Below, one piece after another: positions 52,815 to 58,903 of a DNA stretch of 64,000 nt. Positions within the stretch are counted from its first letter, which is position 1; each line of letters opens with the position of its first letter. Source of the stretch: an uncultured Solirubrobacteraceae bacterium. Its GTDB lineage: Bacteria > Actinomycetota > Thermoleophilia > Solirubrobacterales > Solirubrobacteraceae. The notes under the pieces are model-generated. The model was not told the origin of the DNA. It did not search any database and was given only the letters and a program-made list of their open reading frames with translations. The translations under genes and the position numbers were made by a program. Location of the stretch: positions 1,947,438 through 2,011,437 of the forward strand of contig OY969096.1 of the NCBI GenBank assembly GCA_963697725.1. The letters are read 5' to 3'.

Positions 52815-52933
52815 ACCGCGGGGACCCTACCCCAACATGGGCTGAGAGAAGCGTGCGTTTCCTCACACGCAGACGATCCCCATTGGGCGGGCGAAGCAAG
52901 ATTGAGCGTCACGCGGGCTAGGGCGTCGCTGGG

Positions 52934-52996
52934 CAAGCGGGACAAGGACGCAGGGAGCGAAGCGTGCGAACAGCACGCGAGCGACCGAGGACGCAG
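52934..52996. repeat. Intergenic repeat copy A (about 62 bp, internal hairpin)
   Basis: About 80% identical by eye to 57050-57110; core CAAGGACGCAGGGAGCG identical; hairpin GCGTGC-GAACA-GCACGC. Confidence 0.8.
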
Positions 52997-53018
52997 TAGC
53001 GCGCCGCTCAGCGACGTC

Positions 53019-53483
53019 CTAGCCGACTTCGGCAGGTTCGTCCTTGCCTTGGAGTCGCTCGCGACCGCGCTGCACGGCGGCAATGAACTTCGAAAGGTTG
53101 ACCTCGAGCGTGTTGAGAATCTCATCCGCGTAATCCTCAGCGCCCAGGCGAATCTCGCGCTCGCGGGCGCGAGCGTCCTCAACGATGTCCTCGGCGGCGC
53201 GCTCGGCCTGCTTGGTGACCTCCTCCTCGCCGACGAGTTTCTCCTGGCGCTCGCGCGCGTCCTTGATGATCCGCTCGGCCTCTTTCTTGGCCTCTGCGAG
53301 CATCTCCTGGCGCTCCTTGACGATCCAGCGCGCCTGCTTGATCTCCTCGGGGATCGTCGCGCGCATCTGGTCGAGGATGTCGTAGATCTCCTCCTTGTCC
53401 ACACGCACCTGATCGGTCATCGGCACCGATTTCGCGTTGTGCACGAGGTCGTCGAGCTTGTCTATGAGTACGAGGACGTCCAT
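53019..53483 (-). CDS. SepIVA/DivIVA-like coiled-coil protein
   Basis: LIDKLDDLVHNAKSVP, IPEEIKQARWIVKERQ, GAEDYADEIL; usual position between coaD and DUF177. Confidence 0.8.
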   Translation of the reverse strand: MDVLVLIDKLDDLVHNAKSVPMTDQVRVDKEEIYDILDQMRATIPEEIKQARWIVKERQEMLAEAKKEAERIIKDARERQEKLVGEEEVTKQAERAAEDIVEDARAREREIRLGAEDYADEILNTLEVNLSKFIAAVQRGRERLQGKDEPAEVG

Positions 53484-53560
53484 GTTCTATCTAGCTGAGC
53501 GTGGTCTGCGGCCGGTGTGCGGCGGAAGTCTGAATGATCACGTGTCGGGGTCCCATTTCG

Positions 53561-54061
53561 TCAGCGTCGCAACTCTTCCTGCAAGCGTCTAGCGACCTCC
53601 TCGGGGACCAGATCGTCGATCCTGCCCCCAAATGTGGCCAGCTCCTTGACGCCGCTGGATGACAGAAAACTGTACTGCGGGCTCGCCATTAGGTAGACGG
53701 ACTCTATCTCGGGGTCCTGGCGACGGTTGAGTTGGTTCATCTCCAGCTCGTACTCGAAGTCCGAGATCGCGCGCAATCCCTTGACGATCGCGCGGGCGCC
53801 GACCTTGCGCGCGAACTCCACGACCAGCGTCGAGAACGGCTCGGCGCGAACCCCCTCCAGATCGACGATCGCCCGTTCGATGAAGCCCATCCGTTCGTCG
53901 ATGTCAAACAGCGCGCTGCTCTTGCGCACGGAGCGGTTCACGACCGCAACGACCACCTCGTCATACAGGCGGGCCGCGCGCCGAATCACATCGAGATGGC
54001 CGTTGGTCAGCGGGTCATACGAGCCCGGACAAACGGCTATTGACTTCGTGGACGGCGTCAT
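53561..54061 (-). CDS. coaD: Phosphopantetheine adenylyltransferase
   Basis: CPGSYDPLTNGHLDVI, IVKGLRAISDFEYE, SFLSSSGVKE. Confidence 0.97.
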   Translation of the reverse strand: MTPSTKSIAVCPGSYDPLTNGHLDVIRRAARLYDEVVVAVVNRSVRKSSALFDIDERMGFIERAIVDLEGVRAEPFSTLVVEFARKVGARAIVKGLRAISDFEYELEMNQLNRRQDPEIESVYLMASPQYSFLSSSGVKELATFGGRIDDLVPEEVARRLQEELRR

Positions 54062-54600
54062 TGATGCAGGTGGATCCTGATTGAAGTGTCCCCGTATCGT
54101 CGCTCGCGCTCAAGTCCGAGCGCCATCTGCAGGGGCTCGCGTCGATCGCTCTCGACCACCACACGCGCCGCCGGCCGGAGCAGTTGCGGCAGCAGCGCCG
54201 ACAGCTCGGGCCCCCAGTCACGCGCCTGGCTGTAGGGGGGGTCGATGAATACAAGATCGTATGTCTCTTTACGCTCCCGTGCGCTCCGGAGCGCGTCGAG
54301 CGCCTCCGCGCGGCGCGCCTGGGCACGCGGCGGCACGAGCCCCAACGCGTCGAGGTTGGCCTGCAGCGAACGCAGCGCGGCGGCGTCGCGCTCGACGAAC
54401 ACCGCCTGCTCGGCGCCGCGCGAGAGCGCCTCGATGCCGAGCGCCCCACTGCCCGCGAACAAATCCAGCACGCGCGCTTGAGCGAGCGGCCCCAGCATCG
54501 AGAACAGCGCCTCGCGCACACGATCGGCCGTCGGCCGCGTGGCCCTCCCCCGCGGTGTCTTTAGGCGACGGCCACCGAGCTCTCCTGCAATTACGCGCAT
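54058..54600 (-). CDS. rsmD: 16S rRNA m2G966 methyltransferase
   Basis: MRVIAG, TRPTADRVREALF, LDLFAGSGALGIEALSRGA, VFIDPPY; ATG 54600. Confidence 0.95.
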   Translation of the reverse strand: MRVIAGELGGRRLKTPRGRATRPTADRVREALFSMLGPLAQARVLDLFAGSGALGIEALSRGAEQAVFVERDAAALRSLQANLDALGLVPPRAQARRAEALDALRSARERKETYDLVFIDPPYSQARDWGPELSALLPQLLRPAARVVVESDRREPLQMALGLERERRYGDTSIRIHLHQ

Positions 54601-54682
54601 ATCGGGACGGTAACGCGCCCCGCACCCGATCCCGGACCCCGCGCGGCAGCGCGGCTGGGCATTTGCACGTCGGAGGTGCCCT

Positions 54683-56995
54683 TTAGGCGGGGATCGGCTC
54701 CAGCGCTTCGCCGCCGAACTCGTTGCGCAGCCGCTCGCCCAGCAGCGTGTTCTCAGGCGCGCGCAGCTGCGGGTCGTCGCCGAGCAGCACCTCAGCGCAG
54801 GCCCGCGCCCGCTCCAGCAGGCCCGCATCTTGGGGCAGCTCGGCAATCACAAACTGGCGCAGTCCCGACTGGCGCGTGCCGACGAGCTCGCCCTCGCTCC
54901 GTAGCTGTAGGTCGATCTCCGCGAGCCGGAAACCGTCTGCGTGCTCGGCCAGCGCGCGCAGTCGCGCCGAGCCGGGTGGTCCCATCAGGCGGCAGCTGGC
55001 GCGATGCTCGCCGCGCCCGATGCGTCCTCGCAGCTGATGCAACTGGGAAATGCCGAAGCGCTCGGCGTTCTCCACCAGCATCATCGTCGCGTTCGGCACG
55101 TCGATGCCCACCTCGATCACGGTCGTGGCGACAAGCACATCAGCGCGGCCCGAGGCGAACGCCGCCATCGCCTCCTGCTTCTCGCGCGGGCGCATGCCGC
55201 CGTGGAGCAGTACCAGCTCATAGCCCTGCAACTCACCCTCGCGCAGCCGCTGCAGCTCCGCGGTGGCGGCGCGCAGCTCGCCGAGCGCGCCGCGCGCCGC
55301 ACCAGCGCCCGCGGCTTCGGCGGCCTCCGCGCTTGCACCGCTCGGAGCAGAGCCCGAGGGCGCTGCGGCGCCTGGCTGCTGGGGCTCCTGCTCGATCAGC
55401 GGGCACACCACGAATGCCTGACGCCCCGCGCGCAGCTGCTCGCGCAACTCCTCATAGGCCCGCGCCCGGGCGCGCTCGCCCGCGACGATGCGCGTGTCGA
55501 TCGGCTGGCGCCCGAGCGGCAGCTCACGCAGCGCGCTCGTTTCAAGATCGCCGTAGCGCGCCAGCGCCAGCGTGCGGGGGATCGGTGTGGCGGTCATGTG
55601 CAGCATGTGCGGCGTGCCCTTCTCGTGCAGTGCCGCGCGCTGGCGCACGCCGAAACGGTGCTGCTCGTCGATGACCGCGACCGCTAGCGAGCGGAACTCG
55701 ACGTCGGGCTCGATCAGCGCATGTGTGCCCACGAGCAGCGAGCACTCACCGCTTGCCAGCTTGCCCAGCGTGTCGCGCCGAGCGCGGGCGGCGGTCGATC
55801 CCGTCAACAGTGCACAGCTCACGTTTTCGGGGCCGAGCAGCCGCTGGATCGTGGCGAAGTGCTGTTCGGCCAACGTCTCCGTCGGCGCCATCAGCGCCGC
55901 CTGCGCCCCGTGCTCGACCGCGCGCAGCATCGCGTACAGCGCTACGACGGTCTTGCCGCTGCCGACCTCGCCCATCAGCAACCTCTGCATCGCCCGCGAG
56001 CCCGCGAGGTCCGCGTCGATCTCGGCGATCGCCCGCAGCTGGTCGCCCGTGGGCACGAACGGCAGCACCTCTCTGAGCCAGCGCGCGCTCAGCTCCGGCG
56101 CTTGCTCGAGCGCGGGTGCACCCTCGTGCTGGCGCCGGCGCGCGCGGCGCAGCAGAAACACGAGCTGCGTCAGCAGCAGCTCGTCGAAGGCCAGCCGCGC
56201 CCGACCCTGCGCAGTGTCCTCGGGATCGCGCGGGAAGTGCATCGCCGCCAGCGCGCTCGCGCGATCGGGCAACCTCTGTTGCGCGCGAGTCAACCCCGGC
56301 AGCGGCTCGCTCACGTCGGCGAGGCGATCGCTGAGGCCCCGCACCAGCGTCAGGATCTGCGTCGAGCTGACGCCCTCGCTCGCGGGATAGTGCGCCACCG
56401 CCTCCCCCCCGCCTGGCGCCTCACTCGCACCGAGGCCGATCTGCCCGCCGAGCGCGTGGTGTGAGACGCGAAAGCCGCCGCGCTCGTCGGCCTTGCCGTG
56501 CAATAGGAGCGTCGTACCCGGCGAATAGCGCTGCACCAGCCAGGGCTGGTTGAAGAACGTCGCGCGCATGCTGCCGGTCTCATCGTGCACGGTCGCCTCG
56601 ACCAGCGGGCGCATCCCACGCCGCCTCACGGGCCGCGCCGCGATCGCGCGCACGCGCACCGCCACCGTGGCCTGCTCGCCCGGGCGTAGGTTCGCGACCG
56701 TGCGTGCCTCGCGACTGTCGCGCGGCAGGTGTTCGAGCAGGTCGCCGACGGTCTGGAGGCCTAGCGCGTCCATCCCTTCGGCGACCTTGCCACCAGGCAG
56801 CTCTAGTGGCTCCTGTAGTCGCTGCGGCCGGGGCCAGCGAAGCGGCGCAGCCTGCATCTCGGCGCGTTCTAGCGCGCGCGTCTCGCCAAACGCCCTAGGG
56901 CCACGCCAGCCGTCCTCGATGATTCGCTTGACCGACGGCTCCGCGTCCGCGCTCTCACGCTCCGCCTCAATCATCTCGGTCCTCGTCGCGGGCAT
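54683..56995 (-). CDS. recG: ATP-dependent DNA helicase RecG
   Basis: FFNQPW, RLLMGEVGSGKT, MAPTETLAEQH, IDEQHRFGV, MTATPIPRTL, ERFGISQLHQLRGRIGRG; start uncertain. Confidence 0.96.
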   Translation of the reverse strand: MPATRTEMIEAERESADAEPSVKRIIEDGWRGPRAFGETRALERAEMQAAPLRWPRPQRLQEPLELPGGKVAEGMDALGLQTVGDLLEHLPRDSREARTVANLRPGEQATVAVRVRAIAARPVRRRGMRPLVEATVHDETGSMRATFFNQPWLVQRYSPGTTLLLHGKADERGGFRVSHHALGGQIGLGASEAPGGGEAVAHYPASEGVSSTQILTLVRGLSDRLADVSEPLPGLTRAQQRLPDRASALAAMHFPRDPEDTAQGRARLAFDELLLTQLVFLLRRARRRQHEGAPALEQAPELSARWLREVLPFVPTGDQLRAIAEIDADLAGSRAMQRLLMGEVGSGKTVVALYAMLRAVEHGAQAALMAPTETLAEQHFATIQRLLGPENVSCALLTGSTAARARRDTLGKLASGECSLLVGTHALIEPDVEFRSLAVAVIDEQHRFGVRQRAALHEKGTPHMLHMTATPIPRTLALARYGDLETSALRELPLGRQPIDTRIVAGERARARAYEELREQLRAGRQAFVVCPLIEQEPQQPGAAAPSGSAPSGASAEAAEAAGAGAARGALGELRAATAELQRLREGELQGYELVLLHGGMRPREKQEAMAAFASGRADVLVATTVIEVGIDVPNATMMLVENAERFGISQLHQLRGRIGRGEHRASCRLMGPPGSARLRALAEHADGFRLAEIDLQLRSEGELVGTRQSGLRQFVIAELPQDAGLLERARACAEVLLGDDPQLRAPENTLLGERLRNEFGGEALEPIPA

Positions 56996-57049
56996 GCCGC
57001 GCCATGATGATCGCCTCGGCGGTCGTTGCGGGATCAGCGGGTCGCCGAC

Positions 57050-57110
57050 CAAGCGGAGCAAGGACGCAGGGAGCGTGGCGTGCTCGCCACGCGAGCAACC
57101 GAGGGCGCCG
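57050..57110. repeat. Intergenic repeat copy B
   Basis: Homologous to 52934-52996; hairpin GCGTGGCG-TGCT-CGCCACGC. Confidence 0.8.
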
Positions 57111-57136
57111 CTCCGCGCAGCGTCGACGGCCCGCGA

Positions 57137-58903
57137 TTACTCCGCCGCGAGCAGCCACCAGTATGCGGGCTGGCCGCCCTGGCGCAACTCGAGCTCGACC
57201 CCGCCGTTGACCATACCCTCGATCTCGCCGAGGCCCAGCGGCGCGTCCTCGCCCGCCAAAACGCTGATCAGCTCGGGCTCTCCGCGCTCGCCGTCCCCCG
57301 CCGCGAGCGCCTGCAGGATCTTGCGCAGCGTCTCGGTGGGATCGCCCCAGGCCAGCACCTCATCTTGCACGAAGCCGACCGCCTCGCCGCGCGTGAAGCG
57401 TCCCTGCGCATCGTCGCGCGCTGCGGGCGCCACCGCGCCCGTGCGCACGTGCGCCAGCGCCTCGTTCATGGCCCGCGCGTTTTGCTCGACGGTGCGGTCC
57501 GGCGACAACGCCACCGCCGCGGCCAGGCCCGCCTGCTGGCTGGTCGTGGGCGCCACGTGGACCTCCTTGTCCGATAGCCGCGCCGCGTGCTCGGCAGCCA
57601 TGATCACGTTCGCGCTGTTCGGCAGCACCACGACCTCCTCCGCGGGGACCTCGTGGATCGCGGCCAACAGGTCGTAGGTCGAGGGGTTCAACGTCGGACC
57701 CCCGTCCAGCGTCCGTACGCCAAGCTCGCGGAACAGCTCGGCTAGTCCCTCGCTGCTGACGACCGCCACCGCACCACAGCGAGCGTGGCGCGCGGGTCCG
57801 CTCGGGCTCGCGCCGTTCGCGGACGAGCCGATCGCCGAGGCTCCGTTTGGCGACGCACCGTTCCTGCCAGCCACCGCCCCGTTGCTCGCGCCGGCGTGCT
57901 CGTACGCCAAGCGTGCGTCGCGATCATGAACCTGCAGACGCATATCAGCGACGTCCAACCGCGAGACCTCGCCCGCATCCGCGAACACCGCCGTGGCGCG
58001 CTCGGGCTCGTCGGTATGCAGGTGGACCTTGAGCGTCTTTGCGTCGCCCACCACCAGCACCGAGTCACCCAGCGACTCCAATGGCTCGATGAAACGCCCG
58101 GGACTTAGGCCGCTGCCGGTGACGGCGAAGTTCGTGCAGAAGCGGTAGGTGCCCGAGCTGTGCTCGGGGTGCGTGATCCGCGCCGGGGCGTAGTGGTCGA
58201 GCTCGGGCGCCTCGTCGCCGCGCAGCGCGGCGACCACGCCCGCGAACATGATCGTCAGCCCGTAGCCGCCCGCGTCGACGACGCCCGCGTCGCGCAGCGC
58301 CGCCAGCAGCTCGGGGCCGCGCTTGACGGAGTCCTGGCCCGCGATCACCGCGCGCTCCAGCGCCGCCGCGATCGCCGCGTCCTGCTCGCTGGGTTCGGTC
58401 GCTGGGCCCAGGCGCGGGTTCTCGGAGCTGTGCGCGACGTCGGTCACGATCTTGTGCGCCATCTCGCGCGCGACCGTCAGGATCGTGCCCTCGGCGGGTT
58501 CGCGCACCGAGGAGTAGGCGCGGTCCGCGGCTTTCGCGAGCGCCGCGCCGATCAGCGTCGCGTCGATCAGCTGGCCCGGCCGCGAGACGAGCTCCTCCGC
58601 GGCGCCGCGGATCAGCTGCGAGAGGATCACGCCCGAGTTGCCACGCGCACCCAACAGCGCCGCACGCGCCACGGACTCGACGATCTCCTCGCGTCCAATC
58701 TCGTCGATCGTGCGGGGCCCATCGCTCTGTAGACGGTCCAGCTCCTCGAGCACCGCGCGCAGCGTCAAGGCCATGTTGTCGCCGGTGTCGCCGTCGGCCA
58801 CCGGAAACACGTTCAGGTCGTTGACCTCCTGGCGACGAGATTCCAGATGCGCCAGCGCCCCCGCCACAGCGGTGCGAAAGCGGCCCAGATTCGTATCTGT
58901 CAC
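57137..58903 (-). CDS. DAK2-domain fatty acid kinase subunit A-like (FakA/YloV)
   Basis: VNDLNVFPVADGDTGDNM, GARGNSGVILSQ, EGTILTV, VVDAGG, FCTNF, KVHLHT, NPST, GGQPAY. Confidence 0.93.
   Translation of the reverse strand: MTDTNLGRFRTAVAGALAHLESRRQEVNDLNVFPVADGDTGDNMALTLRAVLEELDRLQSDGPRTIDEIGREEIVESVARAALLGARGNSGVILSQLIRGAAEELVSRPGQLIDATLIGAALAKAADRAYSSVREPAEGTILTVAREMAHKIVTDVAHSSENPRLGPATEPSEQDAAIAAALERAVIAGQDSVKRGPELLAALRDAGVVDAGGYGLTIMFAGVVAALRGDEAPELDHYAPARITHPEHSSGTYRFCTNFAVTGSGLSPGRFIEPLESLGDSVLVVGDAKTLKVHLHTDEPERATAVFADAGEVSRLDVADMRLQVHDRDARLAYEHAGASNGAVAGRNGASPNGASAIGSSANGASPSGPARHARCGAVAVVSSEGLAELFRELGVRTLDGGPTLNPSTYDLLAAIHEVPAEEVVVLPNSANVIMAAEHAARLSDKEVHVAPTTSQQAGLAAAVALSPDRTVEQNARAMNEALAHVRTGAVAPAARDDAQGRFTRGEAVGFVQDEVLAWGDPTETLRKILQALAAGDGERGEPELISVLAGEDAPLGLGEIEGMVNGGVELELRQGGQPAYWWLLAAE

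Follow-up and report, generated by a model that had tools for sequence, protein, structure and literature searches.

Whether two similar intergenic stretches in the genome of an uncultured Solirubrobacteraceae bacterium belong to one repeated element and, if they do, what keeps that element where it is found, is the question raised by a window of 64,000 nucleotides (C1:1947438-2011437, in a genome assembled as one contig of 3.23 Mb with a GC content of 67.7%; the window is this whole stretch of DNA). The two stretches, here called copy A and copy B, are members of an order-wide family of imperfect-palindromic interspersed repeats. Patterns detected in the family are probably those of an orphan palindromic interspersed repeat, akin to the elements known as REP (repetitive extragenic palindrome), MITE (miniature inverted-repeat transposable element) and TRIT; its copies would home to stop codons and be maintained as rod-shaped hairpins.

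Iterated nhmmer searches found 44 copies in the same genome and a covariance model found 45 (model R1, built on alignment A2 of 40 own-genome copies; its E-values are rough), and 27 of 31 related genomes were positive for the element, which is thus not confined to the two copies from which a preliminary description of the window had started. Copy number ranges widely, with 0, 0, 1, 2, 6, 9, 12, 13, 15, 16, 20, 21, 25, 32, 42, 43, 55 and 71 copies in the same-genus genomes and 0–57 in those of other families of Solirubrobacterales, and a species-level genome collection has at least 120 stretches with the core pattern, nearly all of them from metagenome-assembled genomes of this order. A search of Rfam gave no match at the gathering score in the window and, when relaxed, only a chance match over copy A (E = 6.6); literature searches found no description of this family. 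The unit is about 105 nt long, rather than the ~62 bp first described, and reads on the plus strand of the window in the order P1, CAAGC, P2, core, P2', GCGCCG, P1'. P1 is a stem of 17 bp and variable sequence that often starts with CTAG or CTGAG and finishes with CTAG or CTCAG, P2 is a stem of 7 bp, also of variable sequence, and the core is made up of a conserved block AAGGACGCAGGGAGCG(TG/AA), an apical 6-bp hairpin of the form G(C/T)GTGC-loop-GCAC(G/A)C and a further conserved block GAGCGACCGAGGACGC. The inner hairpins and enclosing inverted repeats noticed at the outset are real and correspond to the family helices P1, P2 and P3. Both the number of copies and the stability of the copy-A fold go far past what chance would produce. 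The direct repeat seen in copy A, AGGACGC(AG), is likewise a family-wide feature, and the mirror layout AGGACGC..GAGCG, hairpin, GAGCG..AGGACGC is conserved across the order. One locus of the own genome (C1:585040-585445) holds four head-to-tail units with a period of 99 bp, with P1 well paired in the gene-proximal unit only; this array looks like the outcome of tandem duplication rather than repeated insertion.

Retention of pairing while the sequence changes, which had been proposed from two copies, holds for the family at large. Among the 40 own copies, 25 of 30 pairs show compensatory changes on both sides, including all 17 pairs of P1 and all 7 of P2, and the apical pair 49-63 is CG in 27 copies and UA in 11. 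Paired cells make up 88% of the total, compared with 68% in shuffles and 28–45% with the partner displaced; none of 500 shuffles reached the observed value, although related copies are not independent observations and the shuffle statistics overstate significance. An alignment (A3) of 106 copies taken from some 100 further genomes, which was fitted to the model and favours structure somewhat, has two-sided changes at 27 of 30 pairs and 90.9% of cells paired as opposed to 63.6% when shuffled. Copies of other families of the order, taken from genomes G019, G025 and G028, bear on the purine-rich blocks of the core, where columns 44-88 switch from C-G to A-U and columns 50-83, 51-82, 52-81, 54-79, 55-78 and 56-77 change in a compensatory manner; in the own genus the latter columns hold G.A or A.G. 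Because these columns covary as ordinary helices elsewhere in the order, the purine-rich “loops” that are conserved in the own genus belong to the helix, where they are present as tandem G.A mismatches. The element is thus a single irregular rod, continuous over about 45 bp and interrupted by several tandem G.A mismatches, which may form sheared pairs.

In model orientation, the right end of the element meets the stop codon of an opposite-strand gene, with a constant register, at about 38 of 41 own loci. The stop codon lies inside the outermost 3–5 nt of P1, read in gene sense, in 24 of the 34 scorable copies and 2–7 nt upstream of P1 in the remainder, and the stop triplet pairs with the far end of the element (TAG with CTA, TGA with TCA, TAA with TTA). 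Pairing runs at 83–100% from the base before the stop inward, drops to 39% one base outward and is about 25% beyond. The unit therefore has a sharp end, and gradual outward growth of a palindrome is rejected by this boundary. Copies from other species have 43 of 88 stops at 11–13 nt from the core, and the opposite side of the element has no such peak. The preliminary description had placed the copies 22–26 bp past a minus-strand stop, a distance that does not hold: the P1 3' arm of copy A contains the stop itself (CTA at 53019-53021, the TAG of a minus-strand gene for a 154-amino-acid protein, to which copy A is antisense), and copy B ends directly beside the TAA of a fakA-like gene (TTA, 57137-57139, minus strand).

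Genes abutted in this manner, with names read from translations, are gyrB, ychF, nuoD, metH, clpS, guaB, guaA, rho and sodA, and further rpsT, uvrC, secA, rpoD, rpsG, nusG, secE, L25 and nrdJ. The suggestion that the element spreads within operons holds for about half of the loci, which are co-directional operon junctions, but about half lie between convergent genes (some 49% compared with 39% genome-wide, on crude gene calls), and the rule is the stop codon of one neighbour. Orientation set by replication was rejected, as only about 68% of abutting genes are co-directional with it, compared with the roughly 38 of 41 loci at which orientation follows the gene. Insertion into pre-existing terminator hairpins was ruled out because hairpins starting at stops are not enriched genome-wide and P1 arms recur elsewhere. 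By the same crude calls the stops of the own genome are TGA in 53%, TAG in 39% and TAA in 8%, and CTAG occurs 3404 times.

Copies are gained and lost between related species and decay by nested insertion and deletion, with compensatory substitution in addition. The orthologous gene ends of 35 own loci were compared in three congeners (G003, G008 and G014), and almost all of the sites are empty there. For 27 of these 35 loci, the stop of one relative or more falls at precisely the aligned position, and the insert therefore leaves the protein end intact; at gyrB-gyrA, secE-nusG and nusG-rplK the relatives have spacers of 0–25 nt where the element stands here. Of 16 same-genus genomes, 13 lack the element at the copy-A site, while G003 and G009 have it there; among 61 metagenomic loci the site is filled in 4 and empty in 57. 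The end of the 154-amino-acid gene is unchanged in relatives without copy A, and on contig L236 the site is empty even though the downstream flank is the one that most resembles that of the own genome. Filled alleles (own, G003, L237, L242 and L261) have related P1 arms (TAGGACGCC...) with compensatory differences, and P2 and core from different subfamilies, which suggests, as far as alignment can tell, exchange between copies or re-insertion. Decay is seen in palindromes of the type CCGATCG..CGATCGG nested in the GCGTCCT motif of copies (L128 and L228 of G003; L237), in a G009 copy (L133) that holds two nested copies of ACCGAAGCCGGGAGACAC..CATCCCCGTTTCGGCCAGC, and in the uvrC copy of G008, which has a deletion between two GCGTCCT repeats. 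A 194-kb contig from JGI sample 3300067032 encodes an identical 154-amino-acid protein with a spacer of 79 nt before the AMP-binding gene, where 204 nt are found here, and is probably a strain-level allele without copy A.

The dynamics of the family raise the question of a mobilising partner. Target-site duplication, scored as a flanking direct repeat of at least 3 nt, was found in 0 of 41 own copies. Duplication of a TA, TAG or CTAG target, of the IS630- or IS5-like kind, is ruled out by this result together with the inverted ends, since the terminal bases of GTAG..CTAC, CTAA..TTAG and CTGAG..CTCAG ends are inverted repeats and not duplicated targets. Of the earlier likening to REP and MITE elements, the part that stands is a repeated, structured element that is dynamic between relatives, and the part that falls is the target-site duplication of classical MITEs. 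The more specific comparison with REPIN elements and their RAYT (REP-associated tyrosine transposase) enzymes is contradicted: the Y1/RAYT family (PF01797) has 0 matches in the own genome and in all 18 same-genus genomes, with positive controls, and matches in 2 of 31 relatives, both of them low-copy for the element. Pfam scanning of transposase and mobility families was limited to Y1, RVT_1 (PF00078) and IS110 (PF01548), and no gene of the latter two is present in the own genome; all three are rejected as mobilising partners, being absent here and uncorrelated with copy number in relatives. A self-megablast found no multicopy insertion sequence in the own genome. The P1 arms recur at unrelated loci, with 21 of 820 arm pairs identical at 10 or more of 12 positions compared with 2.9 in background samples. 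It follows that the arms move together with the element instead of being copied from flanking DNA, and given this recurrence an outer stem formed as an inverted copy of neighbouring DNA is not supported in the own genome. The family is without a recognisable transposase partner and is for that reason called an orphan repeat.

The gene-proximal end of the unit carries a stop triplet (TAG, TGA or TAA), its distal end the matching complement, and it is the gene-proximal end that coincides with the native stop, or falls within about 7 nt of it, in one orientation and with the protein unchanged. Under the favoured reading of a repeat that homes to stop codons, the family would spread, or would have spread, at the DNA level through a process that targets stops and generates no duplication, possibly because the YYA of the distal end pairs with the stop triplet, and cores would probably have been exchanged between copies. 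The form whose folding matters would be the strand antisense to the abutting gene, whether single-stranded DNA or an RNA produced by convergent transcription. An effect on the host would be secondary, and could be that of a 3'-end hairpin, of a processing site of the RNase III type or of a block to convergent transcription. Mobility, homing mechanism, exchange between copies and host effect are what we infer from these patterns. A narrower form of the proposal, which is unlikely as it stands, is a mobile hairpin in which a single strand of antisense polarity pairs its YYA end with the stop triplet and integrates without duplication through a conserved host or orphan enzyme, for which the tandem G.A rod would be the recognition structure.

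If stop-codon homing is correct, an order of abundant, mostly uncultured soil actinobacteria would harbour a repeat able to locate stop codons to almost a single nucleotide, with no known transposase and without harm to the gene. Such a family would be a clean natural test case for the choice of gene ends by palindromic repeats (REP, TRIT, Correia) and a possible handle on 3'-end formation in high-GC bacteria without classical terminators. It would also be a useful lineage marker and a caution for gene callers, because the repeat supplies stop codons and short spacers. Concrete predictions open to test follow from the strand bias and from the conservation of the tandem G.A motifs.

Several observations weigh against a mobile repeat of this kind. 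Searches for Y1, RVT_1, IS110 and multicopy insertion sequences identified no mobilising enzyme or transposition intermediate, and 45 well-kept copies without an evident transposase could instead reflect selection on each copy. Near-invariant blocks with almost saturated stems are typical of functional RNA or of a protein-binding site. To our knowledge, precision at stop codons has no enzymatic precedent except the guide-type pairing of HUH transposases, and HUH (Y1) transposases are absent from the own genome. The abutting genes appear to be mostly housekeeping genes, as far as names read from translations indicate, and their GC content at third codon positions (GC3) is slightly above that of the genome (p = 0.016). 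Finally, the gene calls on which the register relies are crude, heuristic and GC3-based, and the tendency of the fitted other-genome alignment to favour structure is to be counted on the same side.

An alternative explanation could be that the element is a functional part of the 3' untranslated region of the upstream messenger RNA, acting in gene sense as a terminator that depends on a factor, a processing site for RNase III or a stabiliser of the 3' end, much like mycobacterial TRIT or REP, and that it was copied because it is useful. The fixed stop-codon register, the single orientation and the housekeeping character and GC3 excess of the upstream genes would all be expected from this, and TRIT elements, with the same narrow position at the stop, have been proposed as RNase III substrates (PMC3152330, PMC13714241). 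Moreover, the antisense strand is purine-rich (G 39%, A 20%), which leaves the gene-sense strand rich in C (C 39%, G 30%) and similar to a Rho-utilisation site. It is the other strand, however, that has the better fold. In model orientation, i.e. antisense to the abutting gene, G.U mismatches number 138 as compared with 39 A.C, and G.A mismatches 132 as compared with 27 C.U, so that a gene-sense transcript would be left with A.C and C.U. In own copies alone there are 92 mismatches of the kinds favoured on this strand and 28 alternatives. Minimum free energy is lower on the antisense strand in 37 of 40 own copies and 87 of 106 others, with a mean gain of 4–7 kcal/mol, and several variable columns pass by way of G.U and hardly ever A.C (21:1, 15:0, 15:1), which looks like selection on the fold of the antisense strand, and not like one inherited mismatch, if substitution patterns are a guide. 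Nor is there a U-tract after the hairpin in either direction (a mean of 2.6–3.0 T in 15 nt, where 2.4 are expected), and consensus scans, which found neither classical terminators nor promoters at the copies, rejected both as explanations. Copies also stand within tight operons (gyrB-gyrA, secE-nusG-rplK, rpsG-fusA) for which relatives have spacers of 0–25 nt, copy number ranges from 0 to 71 among congeners, and orthologous copies decay. The strand bias, the intra-operon copies, the range in copy number and the decay weigh against gene-sense RNA as the primary role, with a side effect of this kind still possible; as a primary explanation we consider it conceivable and rather doubtful.

Function as RNA antisense to the abutting gene, in which the hairpin would stop or process convergent transcripts, as an insulator against antisense read-in, or would belong to a small RNA, fits the asymmetry between strands in wobble pairs, G.A mismatches and folding energy, as well as the half of copies located between convergent genes. 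Tandem G.A motifs are typical of structured RNA, and their presence in the element is consistent with this reading also. Alignments and a consensus scan revealed, however, no conserved promoter upstream in the antisense direction, the U-tract is absent, half of the copies are flanked by operon genes that run in one direction, a setting in which convergent transcription is not expected, and the convergent share of about 49% is not far above the crude genome-wide figure of 39%, all of which makes the proposal quite improbable. Recognition by a host protein of a binding or cruciform site in the DNA at busy gene ends (a gyrase or nucleoid protein, as with gyrase and IHF at BIME/REP), with the symmetric X and Y motifs as dimer half-sites, would account for the order-wide mirror arrangement and the location behind housekeeping genes, but is very improbable given that covariation points to intrastrand pairing and not duplex sequence as what is kept, that strand asymmetry is unexpected for a duplex site and that no candidate protein was identified.

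The stop-codon-homing repeat proposed here can be set beside several known systems. TRIT (Tuberculosis Rho-independent terminator motif) is an actinobacterial element with about 150 copies per genome, placed very narrowly relative to the stop codon; it is reported to be confined to Mycobacterium (Gardner et al. 2011, PMC3152330) and has been proposed, on re-examination in 2026, as a substrate of RNase III (PMC13714241). Both are conserved in sequence and structure, narrowly placed at stop codons, lineage-restricted and without proven terminator activity. TRIT is a single hairpin of ~50 nt, largely bidirectional and centred ~8 nt inside the coding sequence, whereas the present element, about 105 nt long, forms a nested rod in which tandem G.A motifs occur, is strictly oriented and begins at the base before the stop; it occurs in Solirubrobacterales, and the comparison with TRIT is one of descriptions. 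A precedent for the stop-codon link is provided by GTAG REPs, which donate TAG stops to neighbouring open reading frames (PMC3733652). Like GTAG REP and REPIN elements (Di Nocera et al. 2013, PMC3733652), the family consists of extragenic, multicopy palindromes at gene ends with copy number varying among relatives, and REPs act as single-stranded hairpins, a further likeness. REPs and REPINs are, however, mobilised by RAYT, and no RAYT/Y1 was found in the own or same-genus genomes. A REP is a palindrome of 20–40 bp with a fixed, unpaired GTAG (or CGTC) tag, while the unit described here, of ~105 nt, is 3–4 times that length and has a variable, base-paired end tetranucleotide (CTAG, GTAG, CTGA, TGAG, CTAA).

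Correia elements of Neisseria and the ERIC/IRU elements of Enterobacteria are also imperfect intergenic palindromes, of 100–150 bp and polymorphic between relatives, and Correia elements are transcribed into hairpins that RNase III can cleave. Insertion of a Correia element duplicates TA at the target, and its fixed terminal inverted repeats of 26 bp are related to an insertion-sequence family; for the present element no target-site duplication was found, and the own genome has no multicopy insertion sequence that might be its partner. As compared with Correia, ERIC and IRU, its arms vary while its centre is conserved, and it sits on stops in one orientation. Integron attC sites recombine by way of the bottom strand, the folded strand being antisense to the open reading frame. 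The present element resembles attC in lying just after the stop of the upstream frame, in keeping structure while sequence varies and in having its folded strand antisense to that frame. It differs in that its alignments contain no RYYYAAC / GTTRRRY core sites and in that it forms no cassette arrays, being dispersed behind syntenic housekeeping genes.

The two copies of the window share 80% identity over ~140 aligned columns, as first estimated, and the shared 16-mer AAGGACGCAGGGAGCG has exactly 2 occurrences within the window. Their parts and the genes whose stops they abut are given in Table 1. In copy A the two purine-rich blocks pair with each other through G-C pairs and tandem G.A mismatches (52944-52961 with 52979-52995), and the predicted fold has an energy of -65.9 kcal/mol (z = -7.75) on the plus strand compared with -52.5 on the minus strand. 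In copy B, P1 is formed by ~57037-57050 with ~57120-57134, and one G-to-C change in P3 yields the alternative 8-bp helix GCGTGGCG/CGCCACGC.

Table 1. Features of copies A and B and of the genes abutting them (window coordinates)
Feature	Position	Strand	Remarks
Copy A, whole element	52918..53022	+	covariance-model match at G000 2000352-2000462; + is the better-folding strand
Copy A, P1 5' arm CTAGGGCGTCGCTGGGC	52918..52934	+	pairs with 53006-53022; 17 bp including 2 G.T
Copy A, P1 3' arm GCTCAGCGACGTCCTAG	53006..53022	+	includes CTA 53019-53021
Copy A, P2 5' arm GCGGGAC	52937..52943	+	partner GTAGCGC 52996-53002; 2 central mismatches in copy A
Copy A, purine-rich 5' block AAGGACGCA-GGGAG-CGAA (motifs X, P2b, P2c)	52944..52961	+	near-invariant in 40 copies
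Copy A, apical hairpin P3: GCGTGC, loop GAACA, GCACGC	52962..52978	+	
Copy A, conserved purine-rich 3' block GAG-CGACC-GAGGACGCA	52979..52995	+	
Copy B, whole element	~57034..57137	+	covariance-model match at G000 2004468-2004577; between fakA-like (Dak2) gene and recG
Copy B, P2 5' arm GCGGAGC	57053..57059	+	partner GCTCCGC at 57110-57116
Copy B, apical hairpin GCGTGGCG, loop TGCT, CGCCACGC	57073..57092	+	copy-specific 8-bp version
Gene for 154-amino-acid coiled-coil protein	53019..53483	-	weak DivIVA / ATP-synt_B matches only; stop is the outermost part of copy A
fakA-like gene (Dak2 / FakA-like_C, Pfam)	57137..58903	-	stop abuts copy B

Other repeats were also found. On metagenome contig Ga0187779_10010635 (L304), at least 5 tandem units of ~36 nt (AATAAGGCGCCGCCGTCAGGCGCCGCCGCCTATCTC) follow directly after the stop of the orthologue of the 154-amino-acid gene. 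The own genome has at C1:2318009-2318105 an array of perfect palindromes of 22–24 bp with a period of ~24, a common centre [GA]CATG[CT] and a different stem in each unit. Arrays with this centre occur also in L198, L199, L134, L240, L256, L262 and L275, and those of relatives directly follow stops, sometimes at sites that hold the 105-nt element in the own genome. In G019, a genome of another family (L313-L332), there are at least 3 subfamilies whose copies are near-identical over their full length, including outside P1, with differing apical helices; these look like recent bursts of longer units of ~125–150 nt, and their adjacency to stop codons is not clear by a crude test of open reading frames. 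By Pfam, the next gene past copy A is that of an AMP-binding enzyme and the next past copy B is recG. A TAGGGT box, -10-like, is located at 52823-52833 of the window (minus strand GGGGTAGGGTC), 7–10 nt before the start of the AMP-binding gene, and is kept in most relatives whatever the length of the spacer, which suggests a leaderless transcript.

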